Part shown: in pieces, positions 3,108-36,386 of the stretch
Numbering within the stretch: the stretch's first letter is position 1
How the letters are laid out: every line of letters starts with the position of its first letter
IMG/VR virus record: IMGVR_UViG_3300020042_006311
Location: 1 to 36,386 of that record
Source of the DNA: a virus
Taxonomy: Duplodnaviria; Caudoviricetes
Length of the DNA: 36,386 nucleotides
Direction: 5' to 3' (one strand)
Translations under genes and position numbers: made by a program
Notes under the pieces: model-generated
What the model was told of the DNA's origin: nothing
Database searches by the model: none
Seen by the model: only the letters and a program-made list of their open reading frames with translations

Positions 3108-3332
3108 GTGTACCGCAAAATTGAAATTGAGCTCACACGCGATGATGATCTCTTTGCAGTGGTCGTTGCCTGCACCGTAACGCCAAATACAGACTCCAGG
3201 GACTCTCCATTCGGGCCGGGCCAGTGGGACATCTCAATCGACTCAGTGATTGACTTGGACGGCAAGGAAGTTGACTTGACCCCGTGGGAACAGCTGTTGA
3301 TCGAAGATCAGATTGGCCGCACCATCCCCTAA
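3108..3332 (+). CDS. Acidic hypothetical protein (74 aa)
   Basis: GTG-start ORF that tiles in the operon. Confidence 0.65.
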   Translation: MYRKIEIELTRDDDLFAVVVACTVTPNTDSRDSPFGPGQWDISIDSVIDLDGKEVDLTPWEQLLIEDQIGRTIP

Positions 3333-3338
3333 AATGAG

Positions 3339-3377
3339 TTGACAAGCGGCGGAAAATCTGTGCTATACTCCGCTTGT
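3339..3377 (+). promoter_or_regulatory. Sigma70-type promoter (TTGACA ... TGcTATACT) overlapped by an 8-bp inverted repeat
   Basis: TTGACA at 3339-3344 and extended -10 at 3361-3369 (19-nt spacer, longer than consensus). ACAAGCGG (3342-3349) and CCGCTTGT (3370-3377) are inverted. Confidence 0.7.
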
Positions 3378-3990
3378 TAGGAATGCGGCCTGCACAGCCG
3401 AATGATTTTGCTGGGTTTGGTTTTTTACCCCAGTAAGCCCCGGAAGCTGTGCAGGCTTGCCGGGGCCTTTTCTTGCCCCAATCCTAGCCGTTGGTTCCGG
3501 CAACGTATCAGCACACTAGCACCGGACGGCCTAAATGCTGTTAAAGTTAGCTGCTAGGCATCACGACAAGTCCTTGCCCCAACTTAGGGAGATTCGAGGG
3601 AGCAAGGCATGGAACTAGCCTCAAAGGCTCAGTCAGGGGAGGAAGTGATGCTGAAACGGGGATGGAACAACCTTTCCCGGAATGCAGTAGGCAAATAGGA
3701 GACATCCGCCCACCTGGCGCATGGAATCTCCCTCATGGCTAGTCGGGGAGACTTGACTACCGAACGCACTGCATCGCTGCAAAGTGTCCCCCTAAATGTA
3801 CACGACTATTCGGGGGACGAAAGAACGCATTGCCTTTCCCCAGCTTTCAATAGAAAGCATTTTGGTTGGTAACCTACCGATTGCAAAAGAGACATCACGA
3901 ATTAGCTTGTGCTCTCGAAAACGAGGTTTCAGTGTGGTGACGTAACGAAAACGCAACCTCGGATAATTTGAATCTTCTCCGAGGTATTGT
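3376..3990 (+). ncRNA. Candidate large structured non-coding RNA (family not recognised)
   Basis: No credible ORF over >600 nt in a gene-dense genome, a dedicated promoter, and at least ten nested helices found by eye. Confidence 0.6.
3437..3474 (+). terminator. Intrinsic terminator with a competing antiterminator pairing (attenuator)
   Basis: Stem GCCCCGG-AAGC/GCTT-GCCGGGGC followed by CTTTTCTT. Segment 3446-3456 is perfectly complementary to upstream 3388-3398. Confidence 0.7.
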
Positions 3991-4007
3991 AATACCAAAA
4001 ACAACCA

Positions 4008-4409
4008 ATGAAAAATATCCTGTTAGCTTTTGCGCTGACATGCACGGCGCAGGCCGCCCCACCGGAAATCTACTGGAAGGCTTTGCACCACGTAGAAAGT
4101 AGCGGTCGTCACGGGCGGATCCTCGGAGACTACGTTAATGGTCGGCCTCAAGCCCTGGGACCCCTGCAACTTCACAGAGCCTTTCACCGAGAAAGTCGCG
4201 TGCCGGGACCATTTGAGCGGGTGGCCGATTTGAGCTACGCCCGTAGGGTGGCGACTGCGTATTACAAACGATACGCTCCAAAAGCATGGGAGCGCGGGGA
4301 TGTTGTTACGTTGGCCCGCATCCACAATGGAGGCCCGAGGGGGCATCATAAGGCCGCCACCCTGGCGTATTCCCGTAGGATTTTATCTGCAATGGGGAGG
4401 AACCGATGA
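4008..4409 (+). CDS. Secreted lysozyme-like muramidase/transglycosylase (i-type/destabilase-like motifs)
   Basis: Signal peptide MKNILLAFALTCTAQA, catalytic VESSG, GPLQL and ARIHNGGP. Confidence 0.8.
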   Translation: MKNILLAFALTCTAQAAPPEIYWKALHHVESSGRHGRILGDYVNGRPQALGPLQLHRAFHRESRVPGPFERVADLSYARRVATAYYKRYAPKAWERGDVVTLARIHNGGPRGHHKAATLAYSRRILSAMGRNR

Positions 4410-4550: not shown

Positions 4551-4742
4551 TCAATTCGAGCATCGGCTAAAGTCCCGCACCGGATGCGACTCATCCCAAA
4601 TTTGTTCGCAGCCGATGCAGTACATGCCGCGACCGTGCGGGAACATTTCGCAACGCAGTTCCGTGCGGTTGCAGTTGTCGCAGGTTGCGAGCCCGACACT
4701 AAGAATGTCTTTTGACGTATCCACCAACGATGGCGAGTTCAT
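4551..4742 (-). CDS. Putative small zinc-finger protein
   Basis: CDNC...CIGC pairs. It fills a gap and reads divergently from the AT-rich tract at 4745-4805. Confidence 0.45.
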   Translation of the reverse strand: MNSPSLVDTSKDILSVGLATCDNCNRTELRCEMFPHGRGMYCIGCEQIWDESHPVRDFSRCSN

Positions 4743-5145: not shown

Positions 5146-5453
5146 TCTACAACCTAGACCGCGAAGACAGCCCAATCGAGCGTATGCTCGACATGGTTGC
5201 TCGTCACGGACCGCGCCTGATGCGCGAAGGCGGTGGGCCTCTAATGGGCGAGTCCCTAAATTCTGGTCGCCGTATTCCGCCAGAGACTATCGCCATGTTC
5301 CACGAAATGAGCGCCGAAGGAATCAGCGGAGCGGCAATCTCCCGCGCAACCGGCTGGTCGCAGAACGCAGTAGCGAAGCAGCTCCGCAAACCTTTCCCTA
5401 AAAAATCCGACGCCGTGACGGACGCAAATCACGGCAAACAAGAACATGATTAA
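5142..5453 (+). CDS. HTH DNA-binding protein
   Basis: EGISGAAISRATGWSQNAVAKQL fits an HTH pattern; translationally coupled. Confidence 0.65.
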   Translation: MIYNLDREDSPIERMLDMVARHGPRLMREGGGPLMGESLNSGRRIPPETIAMFHEMSAEGISGAAISRATGWSQNAVAKQLRKPFPKKSDAVTDANHGKQEHD

Positions 5454-6054
5454 AACCGGCTGGCGTGCTCCGTTCCTCGCCGCGTGCTCCACGCTCCCGG
5501 AAACGGTCGATCTGCCGTATCGTTTCACGCCCGAAGGCGAGCGACTCGCGCTCTTTAAGCGAATCTGCCCGGTGGAATTCGCGAGCAAGATCGACCGCGA
5601 CAAGCTCCCGAATCCCGACGCCTTCGACGCTGTCGCGAAGTGGAACGGATCGTTTCCCGGTCCCTGCGCTATCGGCGGGGCCGAGACGGCAAAGACACGC
5701 GCCGCATGGTCGGCTCTTGGTCGGCTCTACGTCCGCGAGAACAAAGCCTTCGCTTGGTTCCCGGTGCGGCGTCTCGTGACCGAGCTGGAGAGGTACGAGA
5801 GATGCAACGAAGCCGATGAATTCTTTCGCAGCTACGAGCACCAAAAGATCCTGATGGTGGACGACGTTGATAAAATCAATTGGCAGTTCGAGAGTCAGGG
5901 CGCGCTTCTGTTCGCGTTCTACGATTGGGTCTATCGAACGAACAAACCTTGTATCACGACCACGAACAAAGATCGCAAGTGGTGGGCCGGGAAGATGGGA
6001 GATGCGTTCGCTCGACGACTCTTCGACGGCGCTCACTTCACCGTTCAGTTCTAA
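5446..6054 (+). CDS. DnaC/IstB-like AAA+ protein (helicase loader-like) with a degenerate Walker A
   Basis: GGAETAKT, Walker B ILMVDD, sensor-1 ITTTN and ARRL. Confidence 0.8.
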   Translation: MIKTGWRAPFLAACSTLPETVDLPYRFTPEGERLALFKRICPVEFASKIDRDKLPNPDAFDAVAKWNGSFPGPCAIGGAETAKTRAAWSALGRLYVRENKAFAWFPVRRLVTELERYERCNEADEFFRSYEHQKILMVDDVDKINWQFESQGALLFAFYDWVYRTNKPCITTTNKDRKWWAGKMGDAFARRLFDGAHFTVQF

Positions 6055-10778: not shown

Positions 10779-12125
10779 TTGATCCTAGAACACCCACTTT
10801 CCGACGGTAAAAGCCCACCCTTCAGCGCAAAGGCCGAGGAGTACCTCATCGCCTGCTGCCTGCTTGACGGCAACCTAACCCTCTCCCGTGCCATCACCAA
10901 GGGCATACGATCAGACGCTTTCCATGTCCCCGCAAACCGCACCATCTGGGACCACCTGATAAAGGCCCACGGCAGAGACGGACGAATCAGCATTGAAGTG
11001 GTTGCCGAGGATCTGAAGCAGGCAAAGCTCCTAGAGGACATTGGTGGCTTCGCGCACCTCATGAACGTCAGTGGGCTTGTCCCCACCACGGCCAGCGCGG
11101 AGTACTTCATCGACAAGGTGCAAGAGCTGTACCAGCTTCGCCAAGCAATCACAATTGCAACGTCTGCTGTTGAGCGTTGTCACCTGTACCAAGGCGGCGG
11201 CGTATCCGCCTTGGTTGGCGAGATTGTCCACAACCTGTCCCAAGTGGCTAACGGGGATAACGCAGGAGAGAAGCCCCTCAGTGATATCATTGACGAGGTT
11301 GAGCGATGGACGCAGGCACAAGAGCGCGGGGAGCGACCAGAAGGCGCACTCACCCTTGGCTGGATGGACCAACGCTTCTTACCCGTGGAACGCCACGAGA
11401 TTGTTGTCATTGGGGCTCGACCCTCAGACGGCAAGAGTTCGCTCGCCCTCCAGGTTGTTGGCGAGAACATCGCCGCAGGCAAGCGAGTGGCACACTTCTC
11501 CCTTGAAACATCCCCCGAGGCTTGCGTTAGGCAGATCGCCGCCCAACGGGCTCGGCTCAACCTCAGAAACTACCGTCACGAACTGGAGCCCCACCGCAAG
11601 GCGTTCCATAAGGCTTTGGGCCATTTGCGCGAGGGGAAGTGGCTCCGGGTCTTCGACCGCGTACAAGTGACTCAGATTGAGGCGCAATGCCGTCTGCTGC
11701 GGTCCTCATGGAAGCCTGACGTTGTGGTGATCGACTACCTCCAGCAGGTTGTTGCCCCCGGCAAGAGCGTTTACGAGCGCATTACCGAGATTGCGAACCG
11801 CATTGTGGAGCTCAGGAAGCACATGGACTGCCCTATGGTGGTCTGCGCCCAGCTTAACCGAGGCAGCGTCCTAGAGAACCGGGCTCCCCGCAAGGAGGAC
11901 TTCCGGGACTCCGGTGCTATTGAACAGGCAGCGCATCGTGTCTTGCTGCTCTATCGTCCCAACGAGGACTTCTCCGGCATCAGCCAGATGGACACAGAGG
12001 AAAGCCCACGCCGGTACTACGACTATCAGATCATCCAAGCGAAGTTGCGAGACGGCCCCAAGGGTTCCCTCAAGGCTAAGTTTGATTCCCACAGCACCAC
12101 CTTTAGCCCGTACACGGGCATGTAA
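10779..12125 (+). CDS. dnaB: Replicative DNA helicase, DnaB family
   Basis: PPFSAKAEE N-domain, GARPSDGKS, SLE, IDYLQ, QLNR, DSGAIEQ and KLRDGP. Confidence 0.93.
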   Translation: MILEHPLSDGKSPPFSAKAEEYLIACCLLDGNLTLSRAITKGIRSDAFHVPANRTIWDHLIKAHGRDGRISIEVVAEDLKQAKLLEDIGGFAHLMNVSGLVPTTASAEYFIDKVQELYQLRQAITIATSAVERCHLYQGGGVSALVGEIVHNLSQVANGDNAGEKPLSDIIDEVERWTQAQERGERPEGALTLGWMDQRFLPVERHEIVVIGARPSDGKSSLALQVVGENIAAGKRVAHFSLETSPEACVRQIAAQRARLNLRNYRHELEPHRKAFHKALGHLREGKWLRVFDRVQVTQIEAQCRLLRSSWKPDVVVIDYLQQVVAPGKSVYERITEIANRIVELRKHMDCPMVVCAQLNRGSVLENRAPRKEDFRDSGAIEQAAHRVLLLYRPNEDFSGISQMDTEESPRRYYDYQIIQAKLRDGPKGSLKAKFDSHSTTFSPYTGM

Positions 12126-14328: not shown

Positions 14329-14403
14329 GCCCTCGTAGCTCAGTGGTAGAGCACCTGTTTTGTAAACAGGCTGTCGCAGGTTCAATCCCTGCCGGGGGCT
14401 CCA
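14329..14403 (+). tRNA. tRNA-Thr (anticodon TGT)
   Basis: GCCCTCG/CGGGGGC acceptor stem, TAGCTCAGTGGTAGAGC D-arm, CCTGT-TTTGTAA-ACAGG anticodon arm, GGTTCAATCC T-arm and encoded CCA. Confidence 0.95.
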
Positions 14404-32434: not shown

Positions 32435-34528
32435 TTACTGGGCAGGCATTGCCTGAGTGTTCACGTTACCCATAGCTGCTGGCTGGGTTCCAATGCGCCC
32501 AATCTGGGCATTCTGGGACTGCTGCATTTGGAACGTATATTGGGCGGCATACTTCTCCATACGCCCACGGAAGGACTCATCCTGCTGCAAACGCTGCGCC
32601 ACGTCTGGCTGCTGGGCGTACTGCTGGAGGATTTGCAGGGCAATCTGCGCCCCGTTTGGACGGGCAGGCATTTCAATGCCAGCAAAGATCTTGGTGAGAT
32701 CGTCTGTAACGCTCTTAACCACTTGCTGCTGGGCCTGCTCCACCGGCTGGAGAATGGCATCTGCGGCAATCGGATCAATGGCGTTGGCGGCAATGTCAAT
32801 CAGGGTGTCTGGATTGATGCGGCCATTGCGATCAAGCTGCATCAGGCTAACAAGCTGGTTCAGCTTGGATTCCTGTGTTTCTGGATCGGAGTTCAGAACG
32901 TCGTACCCAATGACAATATCAAAGTTCTCGTCAGGGTCGCCCTTATCAAAGCGCATTGGATCGGGCACGCCGGTAACACGGAAGAACACCTGATCTGGGC
33001 CAAACCGCTGGAAGCAACGGAAAGTCATTTTAATCACGTCCTGAACATGGCTAAGAAACTTGTCCAAGATGAACTGACGCTTGATGCCAGACATTGGATC
33101 GTTTGCGCTAAGGCCAACCAGCTTGTCAGCCACGTCAATTAGCGTGCGCTCCATTTCAACGGAGCCAGGGTTGTACTGCGGGGTGGGTCCAAACTGAAAC
33201 TCACCACCGCGACGGTATGGCACAAAGCGGCCCGGTCCCCAGTCGCTGGGGGCGTTACCAACAGGGTGCATGATCGGCGGCATGGTAGCCATCGAGTTGC
33301 GGTCAATGCGGCTATCGCGCTCCACCTTAACCTGCCACTGGATACCACGCAGCATGTCAGACATGCTCTGCACGTCATAGACCCGCTTAGAAGCCTCGCT
33401 AAGGCGGGTAACTACCACGGGGTAGTCCTCGTACCCATTCATCAGCTCAAACTTGGCGTAGGGCTTTACGTCGCCCATCTTGGCAGAAAGCTCCCGGTGG
33501 AACACCGTGCAATAAATGCCCTCAGAATTATCAAGCGGGTCGATCAAGCGCTGGTAGCCATAGACCACCTCAACCAGTTCGTCGGCCTCGTAAACAACGT
33601 CGTCCCACAGCAGGGTCTTGCGCGTGTTGTTTTCCTGCCCAATCGTGTCCACGTTTACGCCCTTGTAGTGCTCGATAACGTAGTCAACCCAGTCCTCGTC
33701 CCAGCCCTCAGTGGCAACCTTGTTCTTTAGCTCCTGCGCTGTGTAGTAGGTACGCCAGAAGCAGAAGGGGGCACGCTGCGGATCAGTAACATAGGACGGG
33801 AAAAAGAAATCACCATCAGGGGTAAGGGCCTGAACAAGCGGCGCATCCACCTGACGACGGCTTACCGGAATCTCGGCAACGCCCTGCTTACGCAAATCCT
33901 TCAACGCCTGCTTTGCCCGCTTGTCGCTTACCGTTGGGTAAACAGACTTTAGCATCTGGATCATCTGGTCATCGGCCAGACCCTCTACAACCGCAGTGGC
34001 GAGCGCAGGGTCAACCTGAGCAAGCTGGTTAAGGTCAAGACGCTGGAGGAACGTGCGATCCTCGCGCTGCCAGCCAACGTAGGTGATAGCAATGCCACGC
34101 TCAAGCAGATGGTTGCAGGAAGCCTCCATCTCCTTTTTAAAGCGAGGGATATAGCTGCTGAGCATCCACTTCAGGAACGAGCTGATAACGCGGGCACGGC
34201 CCATGTCGCCCATCTCCACGGGGTAAGCGCGAATGTTCGCACGCTGCATCGAGGACATCAGCAACGCAACATAGCTATTAATCCGCTCATCAATGACATG
34301 CGCCTCAGAATCAGACGCGCCCTCCCACGGAAAAGCATCAGACCCATGCTTACGAAGATCCCGCGTCTTACCCGGCCAGATGTTATTACGGTCATCGTAG
34401 CTTTGGCGGCACTGCTGGAAGTATGGCTCTAGGTCGGCAAGCGTGTTCTCGTATGCACGGCGCAGCGCATTTACATTTGGCTCTTTAGCTGCGTATGTCA
34501 GTGATTTCTCGTCGTTGTCGGGAGTCAT
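32435..34528 (-). CDS. Portal protein
   Basis: 697 aa, FPWEGASD motif, Gln-rich C-terminus and position after the terminase. Confidence 0.85.
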   Translation of the reverse strand: MTPDNDEKSLTYAAKEPNVNALRRAYENTLADLEPYFQQCRQSYDDRNNIWPGKTRDLRKHGSDAFPWEGASDSEAHVIDERINSYVALLMSSMQRANIRAYPVEMGDMGRARVISSFLKWMLSSYIPRFKKEMEASCNHLLERGIAITYVGWQREDRTFLQRLDLNQLAQVDPALATAVVEGLADDQMIQMLKSVYPTVSDKRAKQALKDLRKQGVAEIPVSRRQVDAPLVQALTPDGDFFFPSYVTDPQRAPFCFWRTYYTAQELKNKVATEGWDEDWVDYVIEHYKGVNVDTIGQENNTRKTLLWDDVVYEADELVEVVYGYQRLIDPLDNSEGIYCTVFHRELSAKMGDVKPYAKFELMNGYEDYPVVVTRLSEASKRVYDVQSMSDMLRGIQWQVKVERDSRIDRNSMATMPPIMHPVGNAPSDWGPGRFVPYRRGGEFQFGPTPQYNPGSVEMERTLIDVADKLVGLSANDPMSGIKRQFILDKFLSHVQDVIKMTFRCFQRFGPDQVFFRVTGVPDPMRFDKGDPDENFDIVIGYDVLNSDPETQESKLNQLVSLMQLDRNGRINPDTLIDIAANAIDPIAADAILQPVEQAQQQVVKSVTDDLTKIFAGIEMPARPNGAQIALQILQQYAQQPDVAQRLQQDESFRGRMEKYAAQYTFQMQQSQNAQIGRIGTQPAAMGNVNTQAMPAQ

Positions 34529-34767: not shown

Positions 34768-35089
34768 GAACCGGGAATTTCTTATTGTTGAGTTTACCAC
34801 GCAGCTTTCGTGGAATTAGGACAGCATGTTTACCACCAATACCTTGTATGTTGGCGTAGACCCATCGAGGGTTTGGCGCATCATGCACAAAGGTAGCGTA
34901 CATGACATCTGGGGAAAACTCTGGAATATCCAGAGCGAGTCTAATCTTTACAACGGCATCCTCGGTGAACCATGTTTTGTTGCCGTGGCCCGTGTAGTCA
35001 TCCTCTGTGAGCTTCTGGGTCTTAAGCATCATTAGATCATTGACGTTAACACCAAGCTGCTCTGCTAGTTCTGTAATTTTAACCTTCAT
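34703..35089 (-). CDS. Hypothetical protein with an N-terminal HTH
   Basis: MKVKITELAEQLGVNVNDL; coupled to the terminase stop. Confidence 0.65.
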   Translation of the reverse strand: MKVKITELAEQLGVNVNDLMMLKTQKLTEDDYTGHGNKTWFTEDAVVKIRLALDIPEFSPDVMYATFVHDAPNPRWVYANIQGIGGKHAVLIPRKLRGKLNNKKFPVHGITDTTGTTYRHASLMGGNV

Positions 35090-36386
35090 TAATAACCTCG
35101 TTTTTTTCCCGTTGTCTTCATGCCCGCTGGGTCAATGTAAACGCAAGGAGTTGTTGCCGCGTATCTTAAACAGTCGATAGGATCTTTCCACGGTTCTTCT
35201 GGACCTGCTGCGCCCGTGTATTCCTTTAGCGCAGCAATCGTGTTTGCACAGCGATCAGAAATGTAGAAATGGGGATGGTTAGCCGAATCAACCGGGATCT
35301 TTGTGTTGTACGCCATCTTAGTCTGGATGGCCTGAATTCCATCCTCAATGTCCAGACCCGGCGCAGGAACAAACAGAAGCCCCACGTCTTCCAGTTCCTC
35401 AATGATACTGCTCGCCCCCGTAAGCCCTGGGCGTTTAGCCGCACCGGCTCTCGGGTCAATCAGTCGCTCAAAAATTTGCTCGGTATCCTCTGATCGAGTG
35501 ATCAGATCAATGTAGTCCCTAATGCCATAGCCAAGACCCTTGGCTCCGTCTCCATAGGACCACTTCCTCCCAGCCCAGATAGCCCAGTCGCCCACATTGA
35601 CATCAGGCCATTCCCGGTAAACCCAGAACGCACCATCCTCGTCCACGGCTATCCACAGCAGGAACCAGTTCTTAGAACCAGCAGGATCAAGAATCAGATA
35701 GCGGGTTACATTGGACCGTGGGATTAGCTCGTGCTTAACAACATTGATCGCAGAGTTAAAGAGCGGGAACTTGGTCGCCATGCTCTTAGTCGGGATGCCA
35801 TACAAGCGGCATAGCACCCATTGCTCATCACCCTTAGCCAAAGCCTCCTTAGCCACCCGCTCGTACCCCGAGAATGGATTGTCCTTCGTGTGCAGGTAAA
35901 TGATAGCCGCATCCTGCTTGGAACACCGCTGCACATACGGGACCATCCTATTGTTCAGTAGCTCCGCTGGCTTCTCCTCAATCGTCGTTGCCCCCTCAAG
36001 GTACTGCCGCACCGTCTCTGTGTACCCATCAATGGGCGTAAAGGTTAGAAGCATCTTGGCATTACGGGTAGCCAGACGAAAGGACAGCGTGTTAATCAGG
36101 TCAGGCCCACCAAGGTACTCATCGCACCACGCCCCAAGGTTTGCTACCACAGGCGAATAGCACCCAAGCTCCAAGCCCTCAAGCACCGTCTGATTCTGCT
36201 GGAACTGGCTGTACGTCTTGAATAGGATGCGACTGCCATTTGCAAAGATCACACTGTTCCCGGCAAAGCCATTCTGCTTGGTGTAGGAGATGTACTCCTC
36301 CTGCCCTAGCTGCTTGCGCTTCAACTCAATGGGCAAATGGTGGAACACCGCCGACTGCTGCACCAGCACAGACAACTCAGCGTTCT
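35089..36386 (-). CDS. terL: Terminase large subunit (5' truncated by the window edge)
   Basis: Walker B AWCDE, coupling motif TFTP, RNase H-like ILDPAG, VYREW and DPIDCLRY. The frame is open to the window edge. Confidence 0.92.
   Translation of the reverse strand, partial: NAELSVLVQQSAVFHHLPIELKRKQLGQEEYISYTKQNGFAGNSVIFANGSRILFKTYSQFQQNQTVLEGLELGCYSPVVANLGAWCDEYLGGPDLINTLSFRLATRNAKMLLTFTPIDGYTETVRQYLEGATTIEEKPAELLNNRMVPYVQRCSKQDAAIIYLHTKDNPFSGYERVAKEALAKGDEQWVLCRLYGIPTKSMATKFPLFNSAINVVKHELIPRSNVTRYLILDPAGSKNWFLLWIAVDEDGAFWVYREWPDVNVGDWAIWAGRKWSYGDGAKGLGYGIRDYIDLITRSEDTEQIFERLIDPRAGAAKRPGLTGASSIIEELEDVGLLFVPAPGLDIEDGIQAIQTKMAYNTKIPVDSANHPHFYISDRCANTIAALKEYTGAAGPEEPWKDPIDCLRYAATTPCVYIDPAGMKTTGKKRGY

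Follow-up and report, generated by a model that had tools for sequence, protein, structure and literature searches.

ColE1 and the plasmid-like prophages of mycobacteriophages are established cases of replication started by an RNA, and in the many uncultured phages that encode a helicase without an initiator, primase or polymerase the start of replication is a puzzle. In ColE1, as laid out in the available part of PMC5043065, a 550-nt RNA opens the origin and its 5′ 110 nt are the target of control. For mycobacteriophages, the accessible text of Wetzel et al. 2020 (PMC7157519) describes RNA origins in the non-RepA members of cluster A and states that phages with parABS mostly replace RepA by a transcribed non-coding region needed for prophage replication. 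A further RNA, ARRPOF, is linked to Rep-independent replication in the available portions of PMC5737381 and PMC12990946.

The locus reported here lies in a linear 36.4-kb virus record (96% complete), the whole of which is the stretch of DNA analysed and is called the window below. The best-matching sequencing runs for this stretch were freshwater and lake metagenomes, and a host look-up of portal relatives returned three short MAG contigs from three phyla, one of them Opitutae. According to PHROGs, the window encodes a major head protein, DnaB, a DnaC-like ATPase, Sak, an exonuclease, HNH nucleases and a methyltransferase; 32435–34528 and 35089–36375 are our reading of portal and terminase, from gene order and motifs. 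The sequence-only reading, a model's first pass over the letters, had noted DnaB and a DnaC-like loader without initiator, primase or polymerase, and the PHROGs and Pfam scans bore this out: neither these three families nor integrase or ParA were detected among the scanned window proteins (30 + 25 with PHROGs, 22 with Pfam, and two more). That reading had also proposed a single ~600-nt multi-domain RNA. The non-coding nature and the promoter of this element stood, while the single RNA gave way to two parts, a leader resembling an attenuator and a core, besides a 3′ hairpin that is dispensable (Table 1). The gene that follows (4008–4409), which we take to be lysozyme-like on the strength of that first label and of its motifs, matched no PHROG or Pfam family.

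Table 1. Features of the element and selected genes of the window (structures are predictions)
Feature	Position	Strand	Remarks
Promoter-like site	3339–3369	+	TTGACA (3339–3344), 19-nt spacer, extended −10 TGCTATACT
Leader	3376–3474	+	~100 nt, predicted bistable
Segment X, predicted antiterminator strand	3388–3398	+	perfect 11-bp inverted repeat with X′ (3446–3456)
Leader spacer hairpin	3408–3436	+	8 pairs; two one-sided changes, pairing kept
Intrinsic terminator-like hairpin, followed by U-rich tract	3437–3474	+	7 invariant G-C pairs; X′ (3446–3456) in loop
Non-coding core, predicted structured RNA upon read-through	3475–3945	+	~470 nt, three domains
First core domain	3486–3531	+	GCCG/CGGC stem stacked on TCCGG/CCGGA
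Second domain	3558–3651	+	closed by GCATCAC/GTGATGC; CCTTGC/GCAAGG and AGCCT/AGGCT hairpins
Candidate pseudoknot	3586–3733	+	3586–3595 (second-domain loop) with 3724–3733, perfect 10 bp
Third domain	3652–3931	+	closed by TGAAAC/GTTTCA; invariant in 3/3 haplotypes
Variable insert	3764–3822	+	has ACTGCAT and GTCCCCC/GGGGGAC of the first reading; 8/59 identical; shorter stretch in L002/L125
Terminal inverted repeat, outside core	3956–3985	.	8-bp arms, 14-nt spacer
DnaC-like loader ATPase	5446–6054	+	phrog_3277, E 4.6e-6
DnaB-like helicase	10779–12125	+	phrog_19, E 2.1e-63; operon downstream of element
tRNA-Thr(TGT)	14329–14403		where early and late genes converge

Set beside ColE1 RNA II as portrayed in the available text, the element is alike in its putative ~550-nt non-coding transcript, its own promoter, the lack of an encoded initiator (none among the scanned window ORFs) and the placement of control within the 5′ ~100 nt. 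Its length to the core end, ~570 nt against 550 nt for RNA II, speaks for an origin, and the distance from promoter to core end (near 3945) agrees with the ~550-nt spacing of ColE1-type origins, both ends being predicted rather than mapped. Unlike ColE1, in which the same text has a counter-transcript alter RNA folding, the 5′ part here is predicted to form a terminator/antiterminator pair; moreover, the phage encodes its own DnaB, and homology to RNA II or RNA I was found neither in the plasmid collection nor in Rfam, its RNAI model included. With the mycobacteriophage origins, so far as the accessible text of PMC7157519 goes, the element shares a ~400–500-bp non-coding RNA region in place of an initiator, related phages having one or the other. 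Those origins, however, adjoin parABS and serve the maintenance of plasmid prophages, not lytic growth, whereas the scanned window ORFs include no ParA/ParB family, and hence no adjacent parABS cassette, and no integrase; the window element instead heads a DnaB operon, has an attenuator-like leader of a kind not described in the available part of PMC7157519, and had no blastn match in the phage collection. The P4 immunity region (CI RNA, seqA/seqC; available portion of PMC4825925) resembles the leader in its complementary segments and in premature termination upstream of replication genes, yet the P4 read-through transcript is an mRNA, whereas 470 conserved non-coding nt follow here. Like ARRPOF, which comes from a region tied to Rep-independent replication, the element would be a structured, pseudoknotted RNA, its pseudoknot being a candidate; ARRPOF is described, in the text at hand, as a 255-nt RNA of a Fusobacterium plasmid, and its model did not match the window. 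GOLLD and ROOL (PMC5737381, PMC12641628; accessible parts) are similar in size and phage setting and differ in that the element matches neither model, lies away from tRNA genes and has an attenuator-like 5′ end. The element qualifies as a member of none of these named families.

The sigma70-like promoter that the sequence-only reading placed before the stretch was confirmed as a prediction: its extended −10 reads TG-C-TATACT (3361–3369), the start is predicted near 3376, and both boxes are kept in the homologues L002 and L125 though the spacer differs. A consensus promoter scan missed this site because it limited the spacing to 16–18 nt. Overlooked in the first reading was the 5′ attenuator (3388–3474). 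The leader contains complementary segments that would compete with a terminator, as in P4/P1-type attenuators, and its two folds are predicted at nearly the same energy (−38.3 kcal/mol for the X/X′ antiterminator, −38.0 kcal/mol for the terminator); X/X′ pairing is predicted to be possible before the terminator hairpin is complete. On the opposite strand, the promoter scan gave no site near 3475–3520, and no separate antisense RNA I was identified. We also observed the same 10-mer just 3′ of the terminator (3472–3481) and in a core helix (3573–3582), a repeat that permits alternative pairing.

All eleven helices listed by the sequence-only reading lie at the coordinates it gave, and comparison with the homologue sorted them. 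Those of TCCGG, CCTTGC, CTGAAAC, TCTCCC and ACCTCGGA are invariant; GCTTTC/GAAAGC is retained around a loop one base shorter; CCTAGC/GCTAGG has one pair broken; and ATGCAGT/ACTGCAT and GTCCCCC/GGGGGAC are missing, 3764–3822 being replaced. In the first domain, L002 turns both G3487-C3530 and A3486-C3531 into A-T, and the second domain shows one compensatory and two wobble changes (one of each in GCATCAC/GTGATGC, one wobble in AGCCT/AGGCT). The candidate pseudoknot, likewise overlooked at first, is invariant in G001 and offers no covariation. Forcing it is predicted to cost 4.9 kcal/mol while the duplex yields −15.4 (loop penalty left out); it would displace the TCTCCC/GGGAGA helix, and by our own estimate the chance of one such 10-bp pair in 600 nt is ~0.2. 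No strong terminator was seen at the 3′ end of the core. In L125, the 14-nt spacer of the terminal repeat is cleanly inverted between the 8-bp arms relative to the window.

Three haplotypes of the element were recovered: that of the window (also in L026), that of L002/L003 (G001, complete) and that of L125. In G001, the sequence 5′ of the promoter bears no relation to that of the window, and the place of the lysozyme-like gene 3′ of the element is taken by an Ala-rich ORF. Between these flanks, identity to the window is 85/95 in the leader, 275/293 over 3471–3763, 8/59 over 3764–3822 and 95/113 over 3823–3935, as compared with 699/1049 identical four-fold degenerate sites in eight shared genes (34–87% per gene). 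The core thus looks constrained, although recent exchange in a mosaic genome could contribute; with indels included, the whole block is 84% identical and no more alike than coding blocks. Together with the Rfam search below, the comparison with four-fold sites supports the earlier claim of an unrecognised non-coding element with its own promoter.

Coding function was rejected, as all six frames are interrupted by stop codons in the two haplotypes compared. The first reading had called the stretch ORF-free; the gap between plausible genes (3333–4007) contains three chance-sized ORFs of 51–70 aa, of which the one on the + strand lacks its start codon in the homologue. Folding was less telling. 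Each of 20 shuffles folded less well than the 615 nt (z −3.2); the reverse strand of 3376–4007, however, scored about the same as the forward strand (z −3.9 and −4.2), twelve control windows taken from this genome gave z values between −7.1 and +2.0 (eight shuffles each, hence noisy), and helices of at least 8 bp were at chance level (11 observed, 8.2 ± 2.7 in 20 shuffles). Because of these overlaps, folding alone does not discriminate. Among the 68 pairs of the eleven named helices, two changed on both sides, four on one side and one was gained in the homologue; all four one-sided changes swap A-U with G-U on the + strand and would be mismatches on the − strand. The covariation, which is drawn from three haplotypes representing two real lineages, was matched by 62 of 500 shuffles and is hence consistent with the proposed structure without being significant. 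On these comparisons, we regard conservation as better evidence for a real element than folding.

Rfam 15 gave nothing at gathering score for the stretch (best E 0.82), in keeping with the novelty first claimed. ARAGORN found no tmRNA, no model of group I/II introns, RNase P or small ribozymes matched, and the covariance models of GOLLD, ROOL, ARRPOF, MISL and OLE had no match in the window. For attenuators of the P4/P1 type, the C4, c4-a1b1 and IsrK models, which belong to Rfam, gave nothing up to E 10 for the window, and no such match appeared up to E 5 for the elements of G012, G023 and G002 (see below). Blastn with the element found nothing in 50,697 phage and 72,556 plasmid records, and blastn with the G012 element nothing in the phage collection. 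Exact-pattern scans of IMG/VR returned only L002/L003, identical to each other, and L125; a pattern scan of metagenomes gave 17 loci, of which one was real and identical to the window, and GTDB gave none. A DNA search of 50 records yielded one real match, 80 Sak-gene loci contained no homologue, and patterns of the G012 and G023 elements retrieved those two plus one chance match. No description of the element was found in the literature searched, which lay mostly outside subscription journals and covered the Weinberg 2017 motif tables via Rfam. The element is a sequence family absent from Rfam 15, the phage and plasmid collections and this literature; at best, it would work like known RNA origins.

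Searches for relatives gave 11 loci with the lysozyme-like gene, and from the 595 portal loci the best 80 were taken; among longer records, 17 were inspected whole or in part. Two of these, G012 and G023, have the same layout in other sequences: a promoter-like site (−10 CTGTG[CT]TATAAT), a different X, a terminator with the matching X′ in its loop, and 350–470 non-coding nt. Their elements are homologous to each other (E 1.7e-10; 0/200 shuffles score as high). In a third relative, G002, the same slot, 5′ of the lysozyme-like gene, is filled by an unrelated non-coding stretch of 725 nt (L004 5260–6000). Its promoter-like sites stand back to back, and 10 nt of a short terminated RNA match the extreme 5′ terminus of the long RNA; trans-antisense control in G002 was not counted, as 130 of 200 shuffles gave an equally strong duplex. 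Similarity of the window core to the cores of G012, G023 and G002 did not reach significance (38, 21 and 69 of 200 shuffles, respectively, scored as high), and none of the three elements had an Rfam match above threshold. A leader detector run over 236 loci (2.35 Mb, many overlapping) gave five distinct matches, all in the elements of the window/G001, G012 and G023; without its promoter rule, it found none in 23 loci of RNA-less relatives and one in the window. Wherever the operon of a carrier is in view, the element lies 5′ of the exonuclease and DnaB genes, and the next gene varies.

The sequence-only reading had raised the question whether element and initiator exclude each other. Of 20 related records whose early operon can be seen, none has both: five have the long non-coding stretch without an initiator (window, G001, G002, G012, G023), eight an initiator-like gene without such a stretch (G003, L005–L009, L012 and phage C75C1) and seven neither (G016, G017, G018, G026, G027, G030, G031); G006, G008, G009, G022, G029 and G032 stand outside this tally, their early operon being outside the view. 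Pfam covered 133 of the 202 listed early ORFs, the remainder being identified by similarity, and in these 133, from eight records, it found no initiator, primase or polymerase apart from a weak HTH_36 in G003; G016, G018, G027, G030 and G031 were covered by two initiator profiles and the leader detector only, without Pfam or PHROGs. The HTH_36 protein of G003 (80 aa) has relatives in L005–L009 and L012, and in each case a short AT-rich tract comes next. These initiator-like proteins measure 80–93 aa, and the three scanned matched phrog_270, a replication-initiation family, weakly (E 3e-5 to 2e-4). Phage C75C1, by comparison, has a clear initiator at the corresponding place (phrog_11233, E 1.8e-29). 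No leader was found in the eight initiator carriers; gap maps cover G003, L005–L007 and C75C1, and the one 510-nt gap without an ATG ORF, in L005, reads like coding sequence. The alternation as such is less clear: seven records have neither, and the split follows clades (portal identity to that of the window is 83–97% in carriers, 63% in G003 and C75C1). As, in addition, seven of the eight initiator carriers share one HTH family, few independent events underlie the pattern, and the alternation is suggestive only.

Several observations concern the initiator-like genes and the loader. The initiator-like proteins of L011 (8104–8346), L005–L009 and L012 consist of the winged-helix part only, followed by the short AT-rich tract; L014 presents the opposite case, a C-terminal-domain-only initiator 5′ of its loader. 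Homologues of the DnaC-like loader in L013 and L014 sit 3′ of initiator-type ORFs, whereas the window loader has no preceding initiator, the 103-aa ORF on its 5′ side resembling a generic small HTH protein; the loader is missing from G001–G003. The complete G026 (L219, L220) has DnaB with neither a detectable initiator nor a long non-coding stretch in its early operon, and a similar tRNA lies, by eye, directly 3′ of its dnaB.

Contigs from four of 24 listed runs add further variants. Those of three lake/sediment DNA runs follow the core, several leaving the window inside the leader (80–99% alike); lake-run contigs diverge from the window at 3943, and one passes from there into a start codon without the terminal inverted repeat. 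From the RNA-library run X8 came one contig on 3399–3637 (100% identical, depth 4.5) that spans the terminator; found with this very stretch, strandless and perhaps DNA, it is a weak hint of transcription. In run X3, two loose contig ends are mutually complementary by eye and may belong to one molecule.

Taken together, we tentatively read the element as an RNA-based replication origin that would work like ColE1 RNA II and be gated by attenuation, a possibility to which we give slightly less than an even chance. Transcripts from the promoter at 3339–3369 would have two fates: to end at the terminator near 3474, or to continue into a folded RNA of ~470 nt that would remain paired with its template and open the duplex for the phage DnaB. 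An R-loop, priming by RNase H/Pol I or direct loading of the helicase, and the use of host primase and polymerase are drawn by analogy only. Through its X′, the short terminated RNA could bind X of newly made transcripts in trans, increasing termination; such pairing might provide copy-number or superinfection control, with a specificity that would shift as X/X′ change. For the origin proposed by the sequence-only reading, the evidence is circumstantial: the position at the head of the operon and the lack of any record with both element and initiator. Also in its favour are the recurrence of the promoter–X–terminator(X′)–long non-coding layout with different X in the window/G001, G012 and G023, the one-sided changes that keep pairing on the + strand only, the lake contigs that depart within the leader yet follow the core, and the RNA origins that replace RepA in mycobacteriophages. 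Against it stand the clade-bound split, the covariation at shuffle level, the lack of significant similarity to the other cores, and the seven relatives with neither, one of them complete (G026), so that, as far as these methods can tell, members of the family can be without both. Since neither parABS nor integrase was detected, the need for copy control is unexplained, and a P4-type attenuator accounts for the leader without any origin function. In the window, the detrended GC-skew minimum is 165 nt away from the element, but in the other four carriers it is at least 1 kb off, and the expected shift was likewise missing from initiator-bearing controls; a G-rich non-template strand was not found overall (skew 0.01). 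An attenuation-controlled RNA origin heading a DnaB operon and exchangeable with a protein initiator would extend the ColE1 and mycobacteriophage cases, and the element, as a 600-bp unit, is open to direct testing. The wider proposal that a family of small DnaB-encoding aquatic phages swaps a minimal protein initiator for several unrelated large RNAs, which would open the origin for the phage helicase, each dosed by a self-targeting attenuator and with a 10–14-nt pairing code as the basis of compatibility, appears doubtful; if true, it would mean an RNA-initiated replicon in a tailed phage that has neither partition nor integration genes.

A long regulatory leader is the chief competing explanation; its attenuator would gate the recombination/replication operon as in P4 immunity with no role in starting replication, and its core would act on the elongating polymerase (antitermination, timing) or be processed into regulatory RNAs. 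The terminator/antiterminator layout and the place of the element before exonuclease and DnaB in all carriers are what such a leader predicts, P4 replication genes are indeed repressed via CI-RNA-driven premature termination (PMC4825925, available portion), and relatives with neither RNA nor initiator exist. We nonetheless consider it less likely than the origin, because a 100-nt leader would suffice, so that 470 more nt, 94% identical in their 5′ part, are unaccounted for, and because it is missing from all eight initiator carriers despite their otherwise similar operons. Even on this reading, the element would be a conserved RNA missing from the catalogues, with a switch that is recognisable and looks programmable. 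A leader serving the lysozyme-like gene in particular, as the first reading also entertained, finds no support, because carriers differ in the gene that comes next. The same indifference to the next gene, along with size, own promoter, the candidate long-range 10-bp pair and the RNA-library contig on 3399–3637, would suit a large, independent phage RNA, such as a GOLLD/ROOL-like scaffold, decoy or cage, under attenuator control; we judge this improbable, as there is no strong 3′ terminator and one variant passes at 3943 into an ORF, the tRNA gene is not adjacent, unrelated cores occupy the same slot, and Rfam gave no GOLLD/ROOL match.

Two further alternatives seem remoter. The core could act as DNA exposed by transcription (single-strand origin, primase or helicase loading hairpins, protein sites), to which the roughly equal folding of both strands and a terminal inverted repeat that tolerates inversion would be congenial; the one-sided changes favour the + strand only, though single-stranded DNA of that strand fits too, and 3300–4050 holds no iteron array, leaving this very improbable. 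Least credible to us is a ribozyme or intron remnant: a type II hammerhead does occur in the early region of L008 (3321–3382; RF02276, 39.4 bits), with a similar one by eye in L011 (about 5830–5890), yet the element had no Rfam match to a ribozyme or intron family down to E 10, interrupts no gene, and is accompanied by no reverse transcriptase in the PHROGs and Pfam scans of the window proteins, so that the ribozyme listed in the sequence-only reading found no backing.

Other parts of the window also drew our attention. Its segment 4410–6060 is missing from G001 and holds a small Cys-rich ORF on the − strand (4551–4742), a divergent AT-rich gap, a small basic ORF, an HTH ORF and, lacking the initiator that usually goes with it, the DnaC-like ATPase. 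At the left end of the contig, between terminase and early genes, 1–347 consists of 73-nt arms (1–73 and 275–347; 97% complementary, made of 12-nt repeats) that flank four 17-nt repeats. This could be a packaging or terminus signal, an iteron origin or an assembly fold-back; as an iteron origin, it would rival the RNA-origin reading. Finally, a repeated intergenic hairpin motif lies 5′ of early genes at 1664–1725 and 1976–2035 and recurs in several relatives.
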